A stretch of DNA of 37,232 bases from Oligoflexus sp. (GCA_041736305.1 JBGSTX010000238.1:1-37232), one strand, 5' to 3'; shown: positions 6,240-37,232, counted from the stretch's first letter. Numbers and translations are program-made. The notes: a model not told the origin generated them from the sequence alone.

Positions 6240-6620
6240 ATGATGACTTTTCCCAAAGATTTGAAATACACCCGTGAGCATGAATGGGTCCGCAATGAAG
6301 GCGGCACCGTGACTGTCGGTATTACAGCCTACGCGCTAGAACAGCTCGGAGATGTTGTGCACCTGGATCTGCCGAAGGTCGGTGAAACGTATAAAGCCGG
6401 TTCTACTTTTGGCACCATCGAATCAACCAAAACAGTTTCTGATCTCTATATGCCCCACTCAGGCAAAGTCATGGCGGTTAATTCACCGATCGCAAGCAAG
6501 CTAGAAGCTCTGGTTGATGACCCCTACAAGAACGGTTGGCTGGTTAAAATACAAGTCGACAAAGAAGATGGCGAAACAATTTCAGCTGATGAATATCAAA
6601 AATTTATCGCTGAAGATTGA
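6240..6620 (+). CDS. gcvH: Glycine cleavage system H protein (start ATG 6240 or 6243)
   Basis: 'LKYTREHEW', 'GITAYALEQLGDVV', lipoyl-lysine motif 'IESTKTVSDLY', 'DPYKNGW'; GAGG upstream. Confidence 0.96.
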   Translation: MMTFPKDLKYTREHEWVRNEGGTVTVGITAYALEQLGDVVHLDLPKVGETYKAGSTFGTIESTKTVSDLYMPHSGKVMAVNSPIASKLEALVDDPYKNGWLVKIQVDKEDGETISADEYQKFIAED

Positions 6621-9731: not shown

Positions 9732-10823
9732 CTACTCAGACTCTCTACCTTCGAACGAGTGAAGGAGGGTCTGTCCCTCGGCTAAAACTGAAAAATCGTC
9801 ATAATGGACATCGCTACTGCTTTCGATCGCTTTATGGAGATCGACGAGGGGCTGCTCGATGCTCTCATCGGTCAGCTGAAAAGTCCCGAAGTGGATCCCG
9901 AGCGATTTTTTCGAACCGAGATCTTTATGGGCCAAGACAGCCTCTGCGGGATTCATATGATAATCTTTCATAAACCACCGCGGCTCGTAAGCGCCTATCG
10001 GCAAGAAAGCTAGATCCATCGGACCTAAGCGCTCCTCAATAGCTTTAAAATGTGGACCGTAGCCGGTATCACCCCCAAAATAGATGTGATGCCCCCGGTA
10101 GATGATGGTATAGCTACCCCAAAGACTCTCGTAACGATCGTTTAACCAGCGACCTGACCAATGCCGCGCAGGAGTGAAGACGATCTTAAGTTCATCGTTA
10201 ATCTTCCGCTCCTGCCACCAATCCATTTCCTCGATCCGATCGACTCCAAATGAATTGAGATAGGCCTTGTCGCCCAGAGGGATCAGTATGAGCGGTTGAT
10301 CGCGTTCTTTGAGTCGAGCCAAAGTCGCTTCATCCATGTGATCGTAGTGATTATGACTAATGATCACTGCATCTATTTTGGGCAGATCTTCCCAAGCAAT
10401 CCCGGGCTCACGGACCCGTTTATGTCCGACCCATTGGAAAGGACTGGGGCGCTCAGACCAGATGGGATCGGTGAGGATATTGTAACCCTTAAACTGCAGC
10501 AGCATCGTTGCATGGTTAACGAAGGTCACCGCTACTGAATTCTCGTCCAATTCTTTCCTAAGATCGGGACGGGCGATGTTCACGAGAGACTCTGGCCACT
10601 CTTTTCGATCGCCGAAAAATTGCCAACGGAGAACATCGCTGAAAGACTTTTTATTATCACCCTCGGGATTGAAAAACTTCTGACCATCAAAATGATCGGA
10701 TTTCGGGCCTTCATAGCTCGACGAGGTACAAGAAATCAGCAGGAATATTCCGCTAAAGTAGCCAGCTACGCGAGCACAGGGGGAGTACAGCAGAAAGTAG
10801 GGGATCCGGGATTGGGTTTTCAA
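9732..10823 (-). CDS. MBL-fold metallo-hydrolase (RomA/NAPE-PLD-like), possibly a lipoprotein
   Basis: 'HATMLL', 'LTDPIWSER', zinc motif 'SHNHYDHMD', 'PARHWSGR', 'GGDTGY', 'PIGAYEPRWFM', 'IHFGTF'; lipobox-like 'LLISC'. Start placed at TTG 10823 (GAAGG upstream) because the track start at 10976 overlaps rapZ. Confidence 0.85.
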   Translation of the reverse strand: MKTQSRIPYFLLYSPCARVAGYFSGIFLLISCTSSSYEGPKSDHFDGQKFFNPEGDNKKSFSDVLRWQFFGDRKEWPESLVNIARPDLRKELDENSVAVTFVNHATMLLQFKGYNILTDPIWSERPSPFQWVGHKRVREPGIAWEDLPKIDAVIISHNHYDHMDEATLARLKERDQPLILIPLGDKAYLNSFGVDRIEEMDWWQERKINDELKIVFTPARHWSGRWLNDRYESLWGSYTIIYRGHHIYFGGDTGYGPHFKAIEERLGPMDLAFLPIGAYEPRWFMKDYHMNPAEAVLAHKDLGSKKSLGIHFGTFQLTDESIEQPLVDLHKAIESSSDVHYDDFSVLAEGQTLLHSFEGRESE

Positions 10824-31083: not shown

Positions 31084-32202
31084 TTAGCTTTCTTTGATGG
31101 GAACCAAAACGTGCATCGAATGACAGCTGGTGGGTTCGGTAAATGGCACCAGAACGACAGGATCTTCATCCGATCCGAAGTTGATCGTTACCTCATCACT
31201 TGACATAGTCGAAAAGACGTCTGTAAGGAATTTGCCATTGATGGCTAGCTCGCGCTCTCCTTGGCAGTAGTCTGCCAAAGCGATACTTTCCTGTCCTTCA
31301 GAGCTCCCTATCGTTCTCGATCTAAGGGTAAGCGAGTAATCTGAAAAGCACAACTGCAAAGCTCGCGTCTTGTCGGACGCAAGGAGCACGCGTTTGGCGA
31401 CATTTTGTAGGTACGGGCGTTGGACCTTAACAGCACTCAAATCGCTCTTGGGCAAGACACCATAATAATTCGGATAACGCACTGCCGAGAGGCGTACGAA
31501 AAGGTGATAGCCCGGAACCCTTGCCTCCAAAGTCGTTTGATCGGCTGAGACAGCGAGTAAAACTTCACTGAATCCCTCAGAACTCATGCGATGCAGTTCT
31601 TGTAGCGCTCGCTTCGAAAGACAGACGCCATTTTTCAAAAAGTCGGGAGGCATTTCGATCTCCACCTCGGCGTAAGACAGACGATAACCGTCCGTCCCTA
31701 CCAAGCGAAGATTCTGTTCGCGAGGTCGATGGAGAAAAGCCACCGACCCATAGTTTCGAGGCGAATCTGGCACAACGCAGAATTGAACCTGTTCAATCAT
31801 GTAAGCGAGCTTGTCAGACGGGAGTATTGCCTCGAGGGCTGCCTCGAGCACGGGAGGCGCCTGCCACACTCTTTCGTCGACGCGAGGCAGCTTCATGATG
31901 AACTCACGCTTCTCGCCGGCCACGACCACAACCTGGCTTTCCTCAGCCCTAATCTCAACGCTGCCCTCAGGTAGTTCGCGTACTACATCTGAAAACAGTT
32001 TTGCAGGAACAAAAACCGTCCCTGGAGAAATGACTTCGCAGTCGAGTTTGCTATAGATGGCGATTACACGATCTGCAGCCGAAAGGTGAAGTTGGCCCTC
32101 GGATGCTTGGAAGCCAATATGAGCGAGATTCCGCTCTGACAGGGTTCCTTGTGATCGCGTAGTTGCCATGCTTAATTGGCTTTTGTCGATTCTCACTTTC
32201 AT
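31084..32202 (-). CDS. dnaN: DNA polymerase III beta sliding clamp (divergent)
   Basis: 372 aa between dnaA and gyrB; 'VPAKLFSDVVRELP', 'VGTDGYRLS', 'YPNY', 'INGKFL', C-terminal 'VLVPI'. Confidence 0.93.
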   Translation of the reverse strand: MKVRIDKSQLSMATTRSQGTLSERNLAHIGFQASEGQLHLSAADRVIAIYSKLDCEVISPGTVFVPAKLFSDVVRELPEGSVEIRAEESQVVVVAGEKREFIMKLPRVDERVWQAPPVLEAALEAILPSDKLAYMIEQVQFCVVPDSPRNYGSVAFLHRPREQNLRLVGTDGYRLSYAEVEIEMPPDFLKNGVCLSKRALQELHRMSSEGFSEVLLAVSADQTTLEARVPGYHLFVRLSAVRYPNYYGVLPKSDLSAVKVQRPYLQNVAKRVLLASDKTRALQLCFSDYSLTLRSRTIGSSEGQESIALADYCQGERELAINGKFLTDVFSTMSSDEVTINFGSDEDPVVLVPFTEPTSCHSMHVLVPIKES

Positions 32203-32227: not shown

Positions 32228-32299
32228 TTCTTTCTTAAGAGATTTATTTAATCTTCTTTTAAACAGTAGTAGTAGGGGAAGGCCCCTAACTGTGGATAA
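32228..32299 (+). promoter_or_regulatory. DNA unwinding element with DnaA-trios (basal unwinding system)
   Basis: In order: AT-rich tract, CAG-TAG-TAG-TAG (32264-32275), GC-rich GGGAAGGCCCC, DnaA box 32291-32299. This matches the order described for the Bacillus subtilis unwinding module. Confidence 0.75.
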
Positions 32300-32304
32300 C
32301 TCTG

Positions 32305-32317
32305 TAACTACCTGTTA
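32305..32317 (-). promoter_or_regulatory. IHF-like binding site within oriC
   Basis: The minus strand reads TAACAGGTAGTTA, one mismatch to WATCARNNNNTTR. It follows the DUE-proximal DnaA box directly, as in E. coli oriC. Confidence 0.5.
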
Positions 32318-32487
32318 TTTTTGAGATTTTGGAGATAACCATCTGTGGATAAGCCTGTGGATCGCTTGTGGATAAGTTGTGGATAACTTCTGATATGATT
32401 TTTCGGACCCAAGTTATCCCCAGCTTATCCACAAGCGATCCACAGGCTTATCCACAGGTTTATCCACAAGATCATAATGGCTTCTCT

Positions 32488-33972: not shown

Positions 33973-34106
33973 GAGATGGGGACCCTGGCCTTCTGTTGCT
34001 TCAGAATTTTGTCTCTGAAGGGACGTATTGACTGACAGAATGAGGAAAAGTATCACAGCCTCGAACGCCTGATCAAGTTGAAAGGCATTGATCTTTTTAT
34101 CTTTAT

Positions 34107-34142
34107 TATCAGTAAGTTAAATTATTAATGGGCTGTGGATAA
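34107..34142. promoter_or_regulatory. IHF consensus site and perfect DnaA box in the dnaA/atp divergent promoter region
   Basis: TATCAGTAAGTTA (34107-34119) fits WATCARNNNNTTR and has an upstream T-rich tract. TGTGGATAA is at 34134-34142. Confidence 0.6.
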
Positions 34143-34252
34143 GCCCTGGAAGAGGCTGTGTCGCAGAGTCAAAATTGTAGGATTCTATCTTAGTTCAGAA
34201 CCTGTTAGGTCTGACATTGTGAGATGTCATTCGAGGGAGAGAGGTACAAACG

Positions 34253-34522
34253 TTGAAGAATTTTCAAAACTTTGGTTTGGTGATGGCTGCAAATTTCGAA
34301 ACCATCGTCTACATGGGCCTGGCCTGGTTTTTTGCAGGATACTTAAACACGAATTACCCACAGGATTATGACTGGGCAAAAGTAACATATGTTTTGGGCT
34401 TGATTCTCATCGCACGCTCTTGGTATGTCGTCTTCCGCGTTTTGATCCGCTCTCAGCAAAAGCTAAGTCATGAAGCCCAGGCCACTGAAGGTCGTTTGAA
34501 AGATAAAACTGATGCAAGATAA
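34253..34522 (+). CDS. AtpZ/AtpI-family small membrane protein
   Basis: Two transmembrane segments with 'GLAWFFAGYLN'; GAGAGG upstream of TTG; first gene of the atpB-atpE block. Confidence 0.7.
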   Translation: MKNFQNFGLVMAANFETIVYMGLAWFFAGYLNTNYPQDYDWAKVTYVLGLILIARSWYVVFRVLIRSQQKLSHEAQATEGRLKDKTDAR

Positions 34523-34895
34523 GTTTGGACTCATTGTTCTCGGTCTCGTTGGGATTATTCTCTTCCTCTTGGCGTATTCATTCCTCGCTCCGCTAGATGC
34601 TGTCGCAGTTGGTGCTGGATACTTACTTTTTTCTGGCAACTACGTCCTCATTGCCAGCGTAATGGGGCGCCTGCTCATCTACAGCAGTGGCAAGAATTCC
34701 CGTACGGCCCTTACTTTGATCAGCGGTTTGAAGTTTTTTGGCCTTTTTGGGCTCCTCTACTTTCTGCTCGTTACCTGCGATCTCTCTGGGCTCTATCTAG
34801 CCTTCGGCGCATTGATATCTCTCTTAGTTTTGAGCGCTGTCCTCTATGTGGGCTATCTGCGTACGCTCGATCCTTCCGAAGCGCCTCGAGTCTAA
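34512..34895 (+). CDS. atpI: ATP synthase protein I-like four-TM membrane protein
   Basis: 127 aa, four hydrophobic segments, 'SGNY' and 'LKF' motifs; directly upstream of atpB. Confidence 0.7.
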   Translation: MQDKFGLIVLGLVGIILFLLAYSFLAPLDAVAVGAGYLLFSGNYVLIASVMGRLLIYSSGKNSRTALTLISGLKFFGLFGLLYFLLVTCDLSGLYLAFGALISLLVLSAVLYVGYLRTLDPSEAPRV

Positions 34896-34989
34896 GGCGG
34901 CTTTGCATTTTAGACTGTTCAACAGACTCGAAATCATATAGTAAAGACATCCATTTCTATATGCGTCGGGAAGAAAGGATTGTCTCCGT

Positions 34990-35787
34990 ATGGATAAGAA
35001 GACTTTTAAAATTCTCGTCCCTTTGATGATCCTGGGCTGGAGTGCCTCTGCATGGGCTGCCGGTGGCGGAGCGCCCATCATCAGCTACTACGAGATCCTC
35101 CTTCACGGTTTGGGCTTAGATCATCATCAAATCGAAGAGTGGAAGCCGGTCATAGGCGCACTCATGACTTTGCTCTTAACCTTGCTAATCGGGCTGTCAT
35201 ACAAGAAGTCTGTTCAAAAAGCAGGCAGTGATGTGAGTCCAGTTGGGCGATTCAGTCTACGTGGTGTAGTCGAGATGGTTCTCGAATTCGTGCAAGGTAT
35301 AGGCACCAATATTCTCGGGGAAGAAAAGGTAAAACCTTTTTTACCGACCTTGTTTGGTTTATTTCTCTTCATTTTCATCAGTAACCTTCAAGGCCTTGTA
35401 CCTGGCTTCACGCCTGCAACTGACAGTATCAACACCAATTTAGTCCTTGGGCTTTTCATATTTCTTGTTTTCAATGCAGCTGGCATTCGAGAGCACGGCT
35501 TGCTTGGCTATTTGCGTACCTTTGCAGGTCCGCTTCTCGTTATGATGCCGATTATATTTCTCATCGAAAGCGTAGGCATGTTGGCAAGGCCACTTTCGTT
35601 AGCTTTACGTCTTTATGGCAACATCTTTGGTGATCACCTTGTTCTTTCGGTGTTTACTGACCTGACGAAGCTTGTGTTGCCTTCATTGCTAATGTTTTTC
35701 GGACTGCTTGTAGCCTGTCTGCAAAGCTTCGTGTTCACACTGCTGAGCAGCATCTATATTCTCATGGCGATTTCCCATGATCATTAA
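34990..35787 (+). CDS. atpB: F0 ATP synthase subunit a
   Basis: 'FIFISNLQGLVPG', essential arginine in 'ARPLSLALRLYGNIFGDH', 'LQSFVFTLL'. Confidence 0.96.
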   Translation: MDKKTFKILVPLMILGWSASAWAAGGGAPIISYYEILLHGLGLDHHQIEEWKPVIGALMTLLLTLLIGLSYKKSVQKAGSDVSPVGRFSLRGVVEMVLEFVQGIGTNILGEEKVKPFLPTLFGLFLFIFISNLQGLVPGFTPATDSINTNLVLGLFIFLVFNAAGIREHGLLGYLRTFAGPLLVMMPIIFLIESVGMLARPLSLALRLYGNIFGDHLVLSVFTDLTKLVLPSLLMFFGLLVACLQSFVFTLLSSIYILMAISHDH

Positions 35788-35816
35788 CGTTTCCATTTTT
35801 TGTATGCGGGGTACCT

Positions 35817-36140
35817 ATGAAGCGTAAGTATTTTAATTTTGTGGCTATTTTGAGTGGCATCCTCGTCAGCTCGCTCGCCATGGCTCAAGAAGGTGCAGCC
35901 AGCGGTTCAATGTCAGGTTCCGGCCTCATCGCTGTGGGCGCTGCTTTGGCGATTGGATTGGCTGCTCTTGGTGGTACGCTTGCTCAGGGTCGTGCCGCAG
36001 ACGCCGCACTTTCTGGTATTGCTCGTAACCCTACATCGGCTGATCGCGTGTTCACGCCAATGATCATCGCCCTTGCTCTGATCGAATTCCAAGCCATCAT
36101 GGGCTTTATCGTAGCGTTCCTTCTCTACGGAAAAGTCTGA
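35817..36140 (+). CDS. atpE: F0 ATP synthase subunit c with N-terminal signal-peptide-like extension
   Basis: Two TM helices, loop 'IARNP', conserved glutamate in 'ALIE'; follows atpB. Confidence 0.95.
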   Translation: MKRKYFNFVAILSGILVSSLAMAQEGAASGSMSGSGLIAVGAALAIGLAALGGTLAQGRAADAALSGIARNPTSADRVFTPMIIALALIEFQAIMGFIVAFLLYGKV

Positions 36141-36550
36141 GTTATATTGGTATACATAGTCTTCCTAGCAGATGAGTGTTCCACGTGGAACACTCAAGCC
36201 CTTCCTTGAGTACACCCCGCCAAATACCTTTATCTATTTTTGATGTTCCACGTGGAACATTTGAAAGACCAGTCACTATTTTCATGATTAAAAACTATAT
36301 GTTCCACGTGGAACATAGTGTCCGTTCGCGACCCGGCTGTGCGCCTCTCGAGATGTTCCACGTGGAACATTCGATCGCTTTTCTGTTGAACCGAAGTATC
36401 TATGTTCCACGTGGAACATTTTTATGAGTTTTGAACAAAATACTGCCTCGTGTTCCACGTGGAACATCATCTTTCCTGCCAAACAAGACATTTTTTATTA
36501 TTTAGGACAAAAACCAGGCGAATGTTCCACGTGGAACATCTCAACGGCAT

Positions 36551-36735
36551 ATTTCGACTAAAAAACGTCTTTTTCGACCAAATTTTGTGTTTTTCTTAGT
36601 TTTTGAGCAAATTTCACTCGAAAATAGAGAAAAAGCGTAGAAAAAGTCTGAAAATGGACATTTTCGATGAATTAAGACCGAAAAAGATGAATTTTGTTCG
36701 TCTAGAAGTGAAAATGGCAGAAAACTAGGCTTTTT
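36551..36735. other. Phased A/T-tract (predicted intrinsically curved) DNA with ~10-bp period
   Basis: A- or T-runs of 4-6 nt sit at the same register in 18 of 19 consecutive 10-bp blocks from 36551 to 36731. Only the block at 36701 lacks one. Confidence 0.8.
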
Positions 36736-36904
36736 GAGGGGAGCAATAGCGAGGAAATGTTCCACGTGGAACATTAGTTCGGTTTTTTCTGATTCTAAGA
36801 GTCGAAAAAACGCAAAATTAGCGAGTTTTTGCTGTATCGACACTGAAAGGTGTTTTTCCACCGAGATATGTTCCACGTGGAACATGTGGTTTTGATCATT
36901 TCTT

Positions 36905-37232
36905 CAATGTTCCACGTGGAACATCGGAGTCCACCTCTTCTGGCAATGTTCCACGTGGAACATCGGAGCCCAACCTTTGGCAATGTTCCACGTGGAACAT
37001 CAGGGCCCGACCTCTTTGGCAATGTTCCACGTGGAACATCCGGGCCCGACCTCTTTGGCAATGTTCCACGTGGAACATCCGGGCCCGACCTCTTTGGCAA
37101 TGTTCCACGTGGAACATCAGAGCCCGACCTCTTCTAGCAATGTTCCACGTGGAACATCGGATCCCGACCCTTTGGCAATGTTCCACGTGGAACATTGGAG
37201 TCTACCTCTTCTGGCAATGTTCCACGTGGAAC
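36905..37232 (+). repeat. ~39-bp tandem repeat (37-40 bp units), one parS per unit
   Basis: Consensus approximately CAATGTTCCACGTGGAACATCNGGGCCCGACCTCTTTGG; at least 8 full units, continuing past the window end. Confidence 0.93.

Follow-up and report, generated by a model that had tools for sequence, protein, structure and literature searches.

We analyzed a stretch of 37,232 nucleotides, hereafter the window, which is the entire contig C114 of the Oligoflexus-like genome G000 (5.02 Mb in 392 contigs, 51% GC, 92.7% complete). Pfam scans identified gyrA, gyrB, dnaN and dnaA on one strand and a small ORF followed by atpB and atpE on the other (Table 1). According to these assignments, atpE is the gene upstream of an array of parS sites. 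The parS site is the 16-bp palindrome TGTTCCACGTGGAACA, of which the window contains 17 perfect copies from position 36177 to the contig end, with 0 expected in shuffles. The whole genome has 22 perfect copies, and the only ones outside the window are five copies in opposite orientation at the end of contig C192, where the right parS cluster carries on (L005 about 9740–9947) and is followed after ~70 bp by parB. The encoded ParB contains the domains ParB_N, HTH_ParB and ParB_C (Pfam PF02195, PF17762 and PF23552, respectively). With 22 identical, perfect parS sites in less than 1.3 kb of assembled DNA, G000 has a very dense centromere; the 39-bp tandem repeat of the array breaks the assembly, and 22 is the number of assembled copies only. 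The parS arrays of relatives have 5–16 sites in tandem repeats of 39–49 bp.

On C192, parB is followed by atpF', atpF, atpH, atpA, atpG, atpD and atpC (Pfam; L005 1–9679). With atpB and atpE before the array and atpF' to atpC after parB, the parS array and parB hence sit within the ATP synthase operon. The same order, with parA–parB inside the atp operon, was found in relatives from other families (G020, G039). Unlike in these relatives, no parA lies between array and parB in G000 (C192 about 50979–51046). The best genome-wide match to a relative's ParA was only 32% identical, in a genome that is 92.7% complete, and parA was either lost or is unassembled. The closest named relatives of the G000 ParB come from Oligoflexus and Oligoflexaceae records with 69–77% identity. 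GTDB representatives share at most 72% ParB identity with G000, which is hence without a close relative among them.

The parS array of G000 is origin-proximal, i.e., dnaA and seven perfect DnaA boxes are found 4 kb off. The boxes were identified with TTATCCACA, which we take to be the DnaA box consensus, and their cluster in the dnaA–dnaN gap is likely the oriC of G000, 4 kb from the A/T ladder described below. As no DnaA box was found within the array, we rejected the ladder as an origin or unwinding element.

Table 1 Features of the window around the parS array of G000. Gene assignments are from Pfam scans.
Feature	Position	Strand	Remarks
gyrA, gyrB		minus	
dnaN	31084–32202	minus	
DnaA boxes, 7 perfect and 1 near-perfect TTATCCACA	32291–32468	4 per strand	in 285-bp dnaA–dnaN gap
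dnaA	32488–34056	minus	
One further DnaA box	34134		upstream of dnaA
Small ORF		plus	
atpB	34990–35787	plus	
atpE	35817–36140	plus	
Left parS cluster, 7 perfect TGTTCCACGTGGAACA	36177–36538		spacing 48–72 bp
Left extension of phasing, across parS site 7	36467–36522		normalised power 7.5
Core ladder, full spacer between parS sites 7 and 8	36539–36757		219 bp, GC 32%
19 ten-bp rows of A/T tracts within core ladder	36551–36740		period 10.04 bp
parS site 8	36758–36773		immediately 3' of ladder
Second, shorter phased spacer, parS sites 8 to 9	36774–36868		normalised power 8.9
Right parS cluster, 9 perfect and one truncated by contig end	36869–37232		39-bp tandem repeat from 36905

The spacer between parS sites 7 and 8 contains a ladder of A/T tracts in helical register. 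A preliminary description of this DNA had noted such a ladder at 36551–36735, and it proved real: 18 of the 19 ten-bp rows open with four A/T bases, with the block at 36701 as the one miss. Row positions 1–4 are A/T in 75 of 76 cells, and positions 6–10 are 32–58% A/T. One row (ATTAAG) includes a TpA step. Tracts are present in both A and T orientation, mixed along the ladder.

Fourier analysis of AA/TT dinucleotides over 36551–36735 gave a peak at period 10.0 with a power of 9.9, which none of 1000 dinucleotide-preserving shuffles matched (shuffle maxima: mean 1.5, standard deviation 0.43). The outcome was the same over 36419–36735 and 36400–36860. The fine estimate of the period was 10.04 bp with a half-maximum range of 9.81–10.29. 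In the genome control, the ladder had a power of 8.97 compared with 2.93 for the runner-up among 247,688 windows of 185 bp, and in a variance-normalised scan of 496,558 windows it reached 38.1 compared with 16.7 at the runner-up locus. The anticipated AA/TT peak near 10.0 thus exceeds both shuffled and genomic controls. Moreover, the mean AA/TT spectrum of G000 has a weak maximum near 11.2 bp; the ladder period hence differs from that of bulk DNA, as had been stated with regard to a genomic period of ~11 bp. The ladder is single-copy in G000, and a mobile element was therefore ruled out.

At the non-tract positions, pairwise identity between ladder units in G000 was 28.4%, compared with 27.3% expected from composition, and TRF found no tandem repeat within the ladder. 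In G000, the ladder is hence a structural signal rather than a sequence repeat, as first proposed, and its units share no sequence (0.284 versus 0.273 expected), unlike the direct repeats of an iteron-type centromere. The accompanying claim that the ladder is not a tandem duplication stands for G000 but fails in relatives, where perfect 10- and 20-bp repeats occupy the same place.

The phasing continues beyond the core ladder. To its left, the extension across parS site 7 is in phase with the core (290 versus 288 degrees at period 10.0), and the segment 36419–36450 is weakly phased with a normalised power of 3.4. The flanking register reported earlier is thus coherent in the former segment and weak in the latter. 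To the right, the W–W dinucleotide periodicity of the second spacer was matched by one of 1000 shuffles, and this spacer is shifted in phase compared with the core, unless the period is set to about 10.2.

We predicted the shape of the ladder with two wedge models, one based on a 16-step table and one that uses only an AA/TT wedge at 10.5 bp per turn; the wedge parameters of both were assumed. Among 495,139 windows of 185 bp in G000, both models predict the strongest curvature for the ladder. Predicted ratios of end-to-end to contour length were 0.531 and 0.546, compared with 0.540 and 0.642 for the next loci, respectively. The first model predicts about 20 degrees per turn and about 359 degrees in total, close to the full 360 degrees, with negative torsion, i.e., a left-handed path. 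For the ladder sequence this model has a helical repeat of 10.5 bp, and since the ladder period of 10.04 bp is shorter, the modelled torsion is left-handed. The models hence agree with the strong curvature and the left-handed superhelix put forward in the preliminary description; whether the path is in fact left-handed would be set by the true helical repeat of DNA this rich in A-tracts. In its A/T runs, their in-phase repetition and a predicted static curvature, the ladder resembles phased A-tract DNA of the kinetoplast type. Other windows of G000 that the models predict to be strongly curved are located at C390 about 9841, C107 about 5191, C29 about 3411 and C69 about 9041; their predicted end-to-end ratios are 0.54–0.64 and they are without a strong 10-bp ladder.

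We also rejected an RNA gene and a coding function. Rfam searches at E-values up to 1 returned only chance miRNA and snoRNA matches far under the gathering scores, and the sole ORF across the ladder (36541–36885, minus strand, 114 amino acids) extends into parS sites and gave no match in Pfam.

To place the ladder in its class, we scored 37 parB-anchored loci with one variance-normalised 10-bp measure and a threshold of 20; with less than 1.1 kb of DNA upstream of parB, L087, L089 and L112 at least could not show a ladder. Seven of the 37 loci reached the threshold, each at most 644 bp from parS, i.e., G033 (59.1), G030 (45.3), G000 (39.7 in this scoring), G020 (34.8), G039 (32.2), G022 (24.3) and G036 (20.4, at a contig start). 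The remaining 30 loci had powers of 6–17, near the background elsewhere in the same loci. An outgroup of other phyla, with 73 parB loci and 868 kb of DNA, yielded no score of 20 or more.

In addition, we used a location-blind search for ten W4 tracts at 10-bp spacing with 0 mismatches in 131 genomes of the phylum, followed by re-scoring. With three mismatches allowed, the W4N6 pattern yields mostly plain A+T-rich DNA, and exact matching followed by re-scoring was needed to make use of it. The pattern matched in 51 of the 131 genomes, mostly in plain A+T-rich DNA. Among the 30 loci listed, 12 re-scored at 20 or above, and ten of these 12 have parS at most 702 bp away. This search added ladders in G062, G066 and G073. 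Taken together, the parB-anchored set and the blind-search loci listed contain a strong ladder at parS in ten genomes from six families, where related genomes are non-independent samples.

The ten ladders resemble each other in dimension. Their lengths are alike across lineages, roughly 100–250 bp, and nine have periods of 9.95–10.25, the tenth being G039 with 9.55. The G020 ladder, with about 19 rows of which one is missing, is much like that of G000. Six ladders have parS on both sides; within the DNA examined, the other four (G020, G022, G073, G036) are found at the edge of the parS cluster and not between sites. In G039 (L172 6060–6330), the ladder lies downstream of parB, past its terminator, and is followed by the one-mismatch parS ATGTTCCACGTAGAACAT, with two more parS sites between parA and parB. 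Weaker signals of 15–17 adjoin parS in G024, G037, G038, G055 and G003.

Two of the 12 re-scored blind-search loci are strong ladders away from parS (G037, G046), the one in G046 being located in a stretch of 26% GC. In G037, contig C243 contains a perfect 10-bp A-tract minisatellite of 12 copies (AAAGAGATGA; L141 1492–1611) not near parS, flanked on one side by the reverse transcriptase/maturase gene of a group II intron and on the other by a chemoreceptor gene.

The ladder was missing or weak in most same-genus relatives, and we hence conclude that it is not an obligatory part of the centromere; with 30 of 37 parB loci under the threshold, the element appears dispensable or replaceable. Instead, the parS array of most species in the genus contains a spacer of 0.8–1.6 kb that is non-coding and A+T-rich. 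This ORF-poor spacer is found in L116 (2425–3691) and equivalently in L117, L119, L120, L121, L009 and L158, with a GC content of 0.38–0.45, and TTCGAA-like words recur in the L116 spacer. Welch spectra of the same-genus spacers had their maximum at 10.0–10.4 bp in four of seven loci, i.e., G003 (3.9), G001 (3.6), G010 and G007 (2.1 each), compared with about 1.1–1.2 in controls; no such maximum was found in G002, G008 and L009, an O. tunisiensis record. Un-normalised power had indicated weak ladders in most relatives, and we discarded these because they fell to background after variance normalisation. The raw power was inflated since the spacers are A+T-rich.

The ladder sequences themselves turn over. 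The ladders of G000 and G020 do not align (best blastn E-value 0.087). In four other genomes TRF found perfect tandem repeats, i.e., a 20-bp unit with 12.6 copies in G033 (AAAACCACTTTTTTCCTGCA) and with 6.4 copies in G062 of the same genus (GAAAAAAAAGGCTAATTAGC), and a 10-bp unit with 10 copies in G030 (TTTTGCTGCT) and with at least 13.7 copies in G036 (GCAATTTTCA). These units are mutually unrelated and differ even within the one genus of G033 and G062. At most weak, short partial repeats were found in G020, G022, G066, G073, G039, G055 and G003. Perfect 10- and 20-bp repeats at the same place in relatives suggest that new ladders probably arise when A-tract units of one or two helical turns undergo slippage; their sequences seem to decay later while the phasing stays. 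The lack of residual unit similarity, the A/T occupancy of 75 of 76 tract cells and the mixed orientation of tracts are unlike neutral decay of one unit. At the level of sequence, phasing is what recurs at the parS clusters of relatives (7 of 37 parB loci, with unrelated sequences), and not the sequence; this was the check proposed in the preliminary description.

Ladders at the same place, with a one-turn period, with unrelated sequences, with interchangeable A and T tracts and with only the phasing kept argue for selection on DNA geometry. We assign a probability of roughly 45% to the reading that the ladder is intrinsically curved DNA under shape selection and an accessory part of the centromere, i.e., an architectural bend that aids the folding of ParB arms. 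The ladder would then be a protein-independent bend inside or at the edge of a parS cluster, with a predicted deflection of roughly 20 degrees per turn that adds up to about a full circle with a slight left-handed twist. In supercoiled DNA it might be placed at the apex of a plectoneme or loop, and the array would be folded back on itself. This would bring the ParB-loaded arms side by side (in G000, 7 parS sites on one arm and 15 or more on the other). ParB–ParB bridging may be favoured in consequence, as may a more compact partition complex and perhaps the loading of SMC. We infer that the ladder could loop the two parS clusters together, as suggested in the preliminary description. By analogy, its proposed job would be that of the IHF-induced bend in P1 parS. 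Four of the ten ladders stand at a cluster edge, a poor fit to a simple hairpin-apex picture.

Bacterial chromosomal centromeres are usually described as parS and ParB, and the ladder is a candidate for a further feature. A more far-reaching reading, which we regard as possible but doubtful, is that the class has a third, shape-encoded centromere component besides parS and ParB. This would be a curved module of ~100–250 bp that serves as fold point and is rebuilt by slippage, with only its geometry inherited. The fold point would correspond to a loop or plectoneme apex and perhaps also to an SMC entry point. The ladder is sharply defined and easily mutated: moving its tracts out of register is possible at constant base composition, and the question whether DNA shape organises the partition complex becomes directly testable. 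With the same place and period and unrelated sequences, the ladders also provide a clear case for selection acting on DNA geometry.

The main rival to an architectural bend is a protein that recognises DNA by its curvature or by narrow minor grooves, from the HU/IHF family or clade-specific, and that docks on or wraps the ladder and gates ParB loading or spreading, for example depending on the growth phase. We regard this as rather unlikely. DNA wrapped left-handedly on proteins has a period shorter than the free-DNA repeat, which also applies to ladder periods of 10.0–10.25 bp. The similar ladder lengths of roughly 100–250 bp across lineages are likewise consistent with a bound protein, and G000 has four HU/IHF-family genes, as most bacteria do. 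In Bdellovibrio bacteriovorus, native parS flanks are reported to block ParB foci via a proposed host factor (PMC10547168), but this organism belongs to another class. The bacterial histone suggested in the preliminary description is without basis in G000, since the histone-fold families PF00808 and PF09123 had no match in this 92.7%-complete genome and were found in archaeal controls. Nor does the ladder contain an IHF consensus. WATCAANNNNTTR, which we take to be that consensus, matches once in the window, at 6594, and not within 36100–37232, and we therefore rejected an IHF-bent parS of the P1 type. Moreover, Pfam scans of the ORFs around the locus gave no linked candidate gene for a binding protein. 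A protein that recognises the ladder independently of its sequence would be conceivable.

The ladder might also be a functionless by-product of replication slippage in a duplication-prone region, with A-tracts phased by chance. The adjoining parS sites are themselves 39–49 bp tandem repeats, in several relatives the ladder consists of young tandem repeats with perfect units of 10 or 20 bp, a similar 10-bp minisatellite is found away from parS in G037, and many relatives are without a ladder. However, at least four unrelated units across six families are all 10 or 20 bp long and all contain A/T tracts. Unit similarity in G000, and by eye also in G020, is at background with the tracts still in register, and in G000 A and T orientations are mixed. 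The ladder is single-copy with no other such locus in 5 Mb of G000, and ten of the 12 re-scored blind-search ladders (30 loci listed) adjoin parS, which takes up less than 0.1% of a genome. We hence consider an origin as mere by-product improbable.

It is well known that bacterial promoters can have curved DNA upstream; to our knowledge, such bends carry far fewer tracts than the 19 found here. A transcriptional role could take two forms. As upstream curved DNA, the ladder might activate the promoter of parAB or parB, or it might insulate the highly expressed atpBE unit from the genes downstream. Either would agree with ladders always located in the non-coding atpE–parA/parB gap (in G039, the parB–atpF' gap) and with plectonemes localising upstream of promoters (PMC6301789). 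A transcriptional role is slightly more improbable still than a mere by-product, because the tract number is so high, the next start codon is far and variable (about 350–700 bp in G020, G033 and G030; in G000 more than 800 bp, a distance that includes 15 or more parS sites), and promoter-like hexamer pairs, of which 34000–37232 contains 2 with 3.8 expected, are lacking in and beside the ladder (36539–36868). Both a transcriptional role and a neutral by-product are thus less likely than the architectural and the protein-binding readings.

Among known systems, B. bacteriovorus belongs to the same phylum-level group as G000. There, 242–330 bp of native DNA around parS block ParB foci in attack phase (Kaljevic et al. 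2023, PMC10547168). Because the block is seen only in Bdellovibrio, the authors proposed that a factor of the host acts on the DNA flanking parS (PMC10547168). Short native DNA next to parS hence controls the building of ParB complexes in that species; about 250–330 bp of flank decide on ParB assembly, with the responsible cis feature left unnamed in the available part of that report (PMC10547168). Unlike G000, B. bacteriovorus has two parS sites, and the same part of the report mentions neither phasing nor curvature.

An architectural role of curvature has a physical precedent, as intrinsic curvature is reported to pin plectoneme tips (Kim et al. 2018, PMC6301789). As proposed for the ladder, sequence-encoded curvature alone positions supercoiled loops in that work, which in its available sections concerns promoters and synthetic sequences and draws no link to parS or centromeres. 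The suggested origin of ladders has a counterpart in the PATCs of Caenorhabditis elegans, 10-bp periodic A/T clusters from Helitron minisatellites (bioRxiv 10.64898/2026.08.08.743475). According to the available portion of this preprint, the minisatellites were remodelled to the helical repeat and became curved and topologically responsive, with a mechanical action that needs no protein motif (bioRxiv 10.64898/2026.08.08.743475). This suggests a shared route from tandem repeat to degenerate phased ladder. In contrast to the single-copy ladder at a bacterial centromere, PATCs are described as eukaryotic, dispersed, transposon-linked and related to chromatin silencing.

The yeast centromere element CDEII is a phased, bent core of about 80 bp with more than 85% A+T that wraps a histone-variant nucleosome. 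The likeness to CDEII drawn at the outset is loose and holds insofar as the ladder is an A+T-rich, phased and, by prediction, bent core between protein-binding sites of a centromere. It does not extend to composition, length or protein partner, as the ladder has 68% A+T and not more than 85%, is 190 bp long, and no histone-fold gene was found in G000.

Two plasmid centromeres are also comparable in architecture. In P1 parS, IHF at a consensus site bends the DNA between the arms of ParB sites. R1 parC with ParR and P1 parS with IHF are both reported to fold into U shapes (PMC2241845). The sharp bend of P1 parS between two sets of ParB sites joins both arms, which is the job proposed for the ladder. 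Unlike P1 parS, the ladder is without an IHF consensus, and its bend would reside in the DNA itself and extend over about 190 bp. R1 parC resembles the ladder locus, with its predicted bend, in being curved centromere DNA with repeats phased at about one helical turn (PMC2241845). It is described as folding back on itself in the segregation complex, whereas folding of the ladder is what we infer. In parC, however, ParR binds sequence-specific iterons of 11 bp, and the plasmid system is of type II, with an actin-like motor. In contrast, the ladder units of G000 have no common sequence, the flanking sites are those of a ParB CTPase-family protein, and the locus is chromosomal; the ladders of G033, G062, G030 and G036 do have perfect direct repeats, but with unrelated units. 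None of the openly available main texts listed in our literature searches describes phased A-tracts as a module of a parS array on a chromosome. Curved centromere DNA is already known from plasmids and yeast, and what appears to be new is such a module in chromosomal parS arrays.
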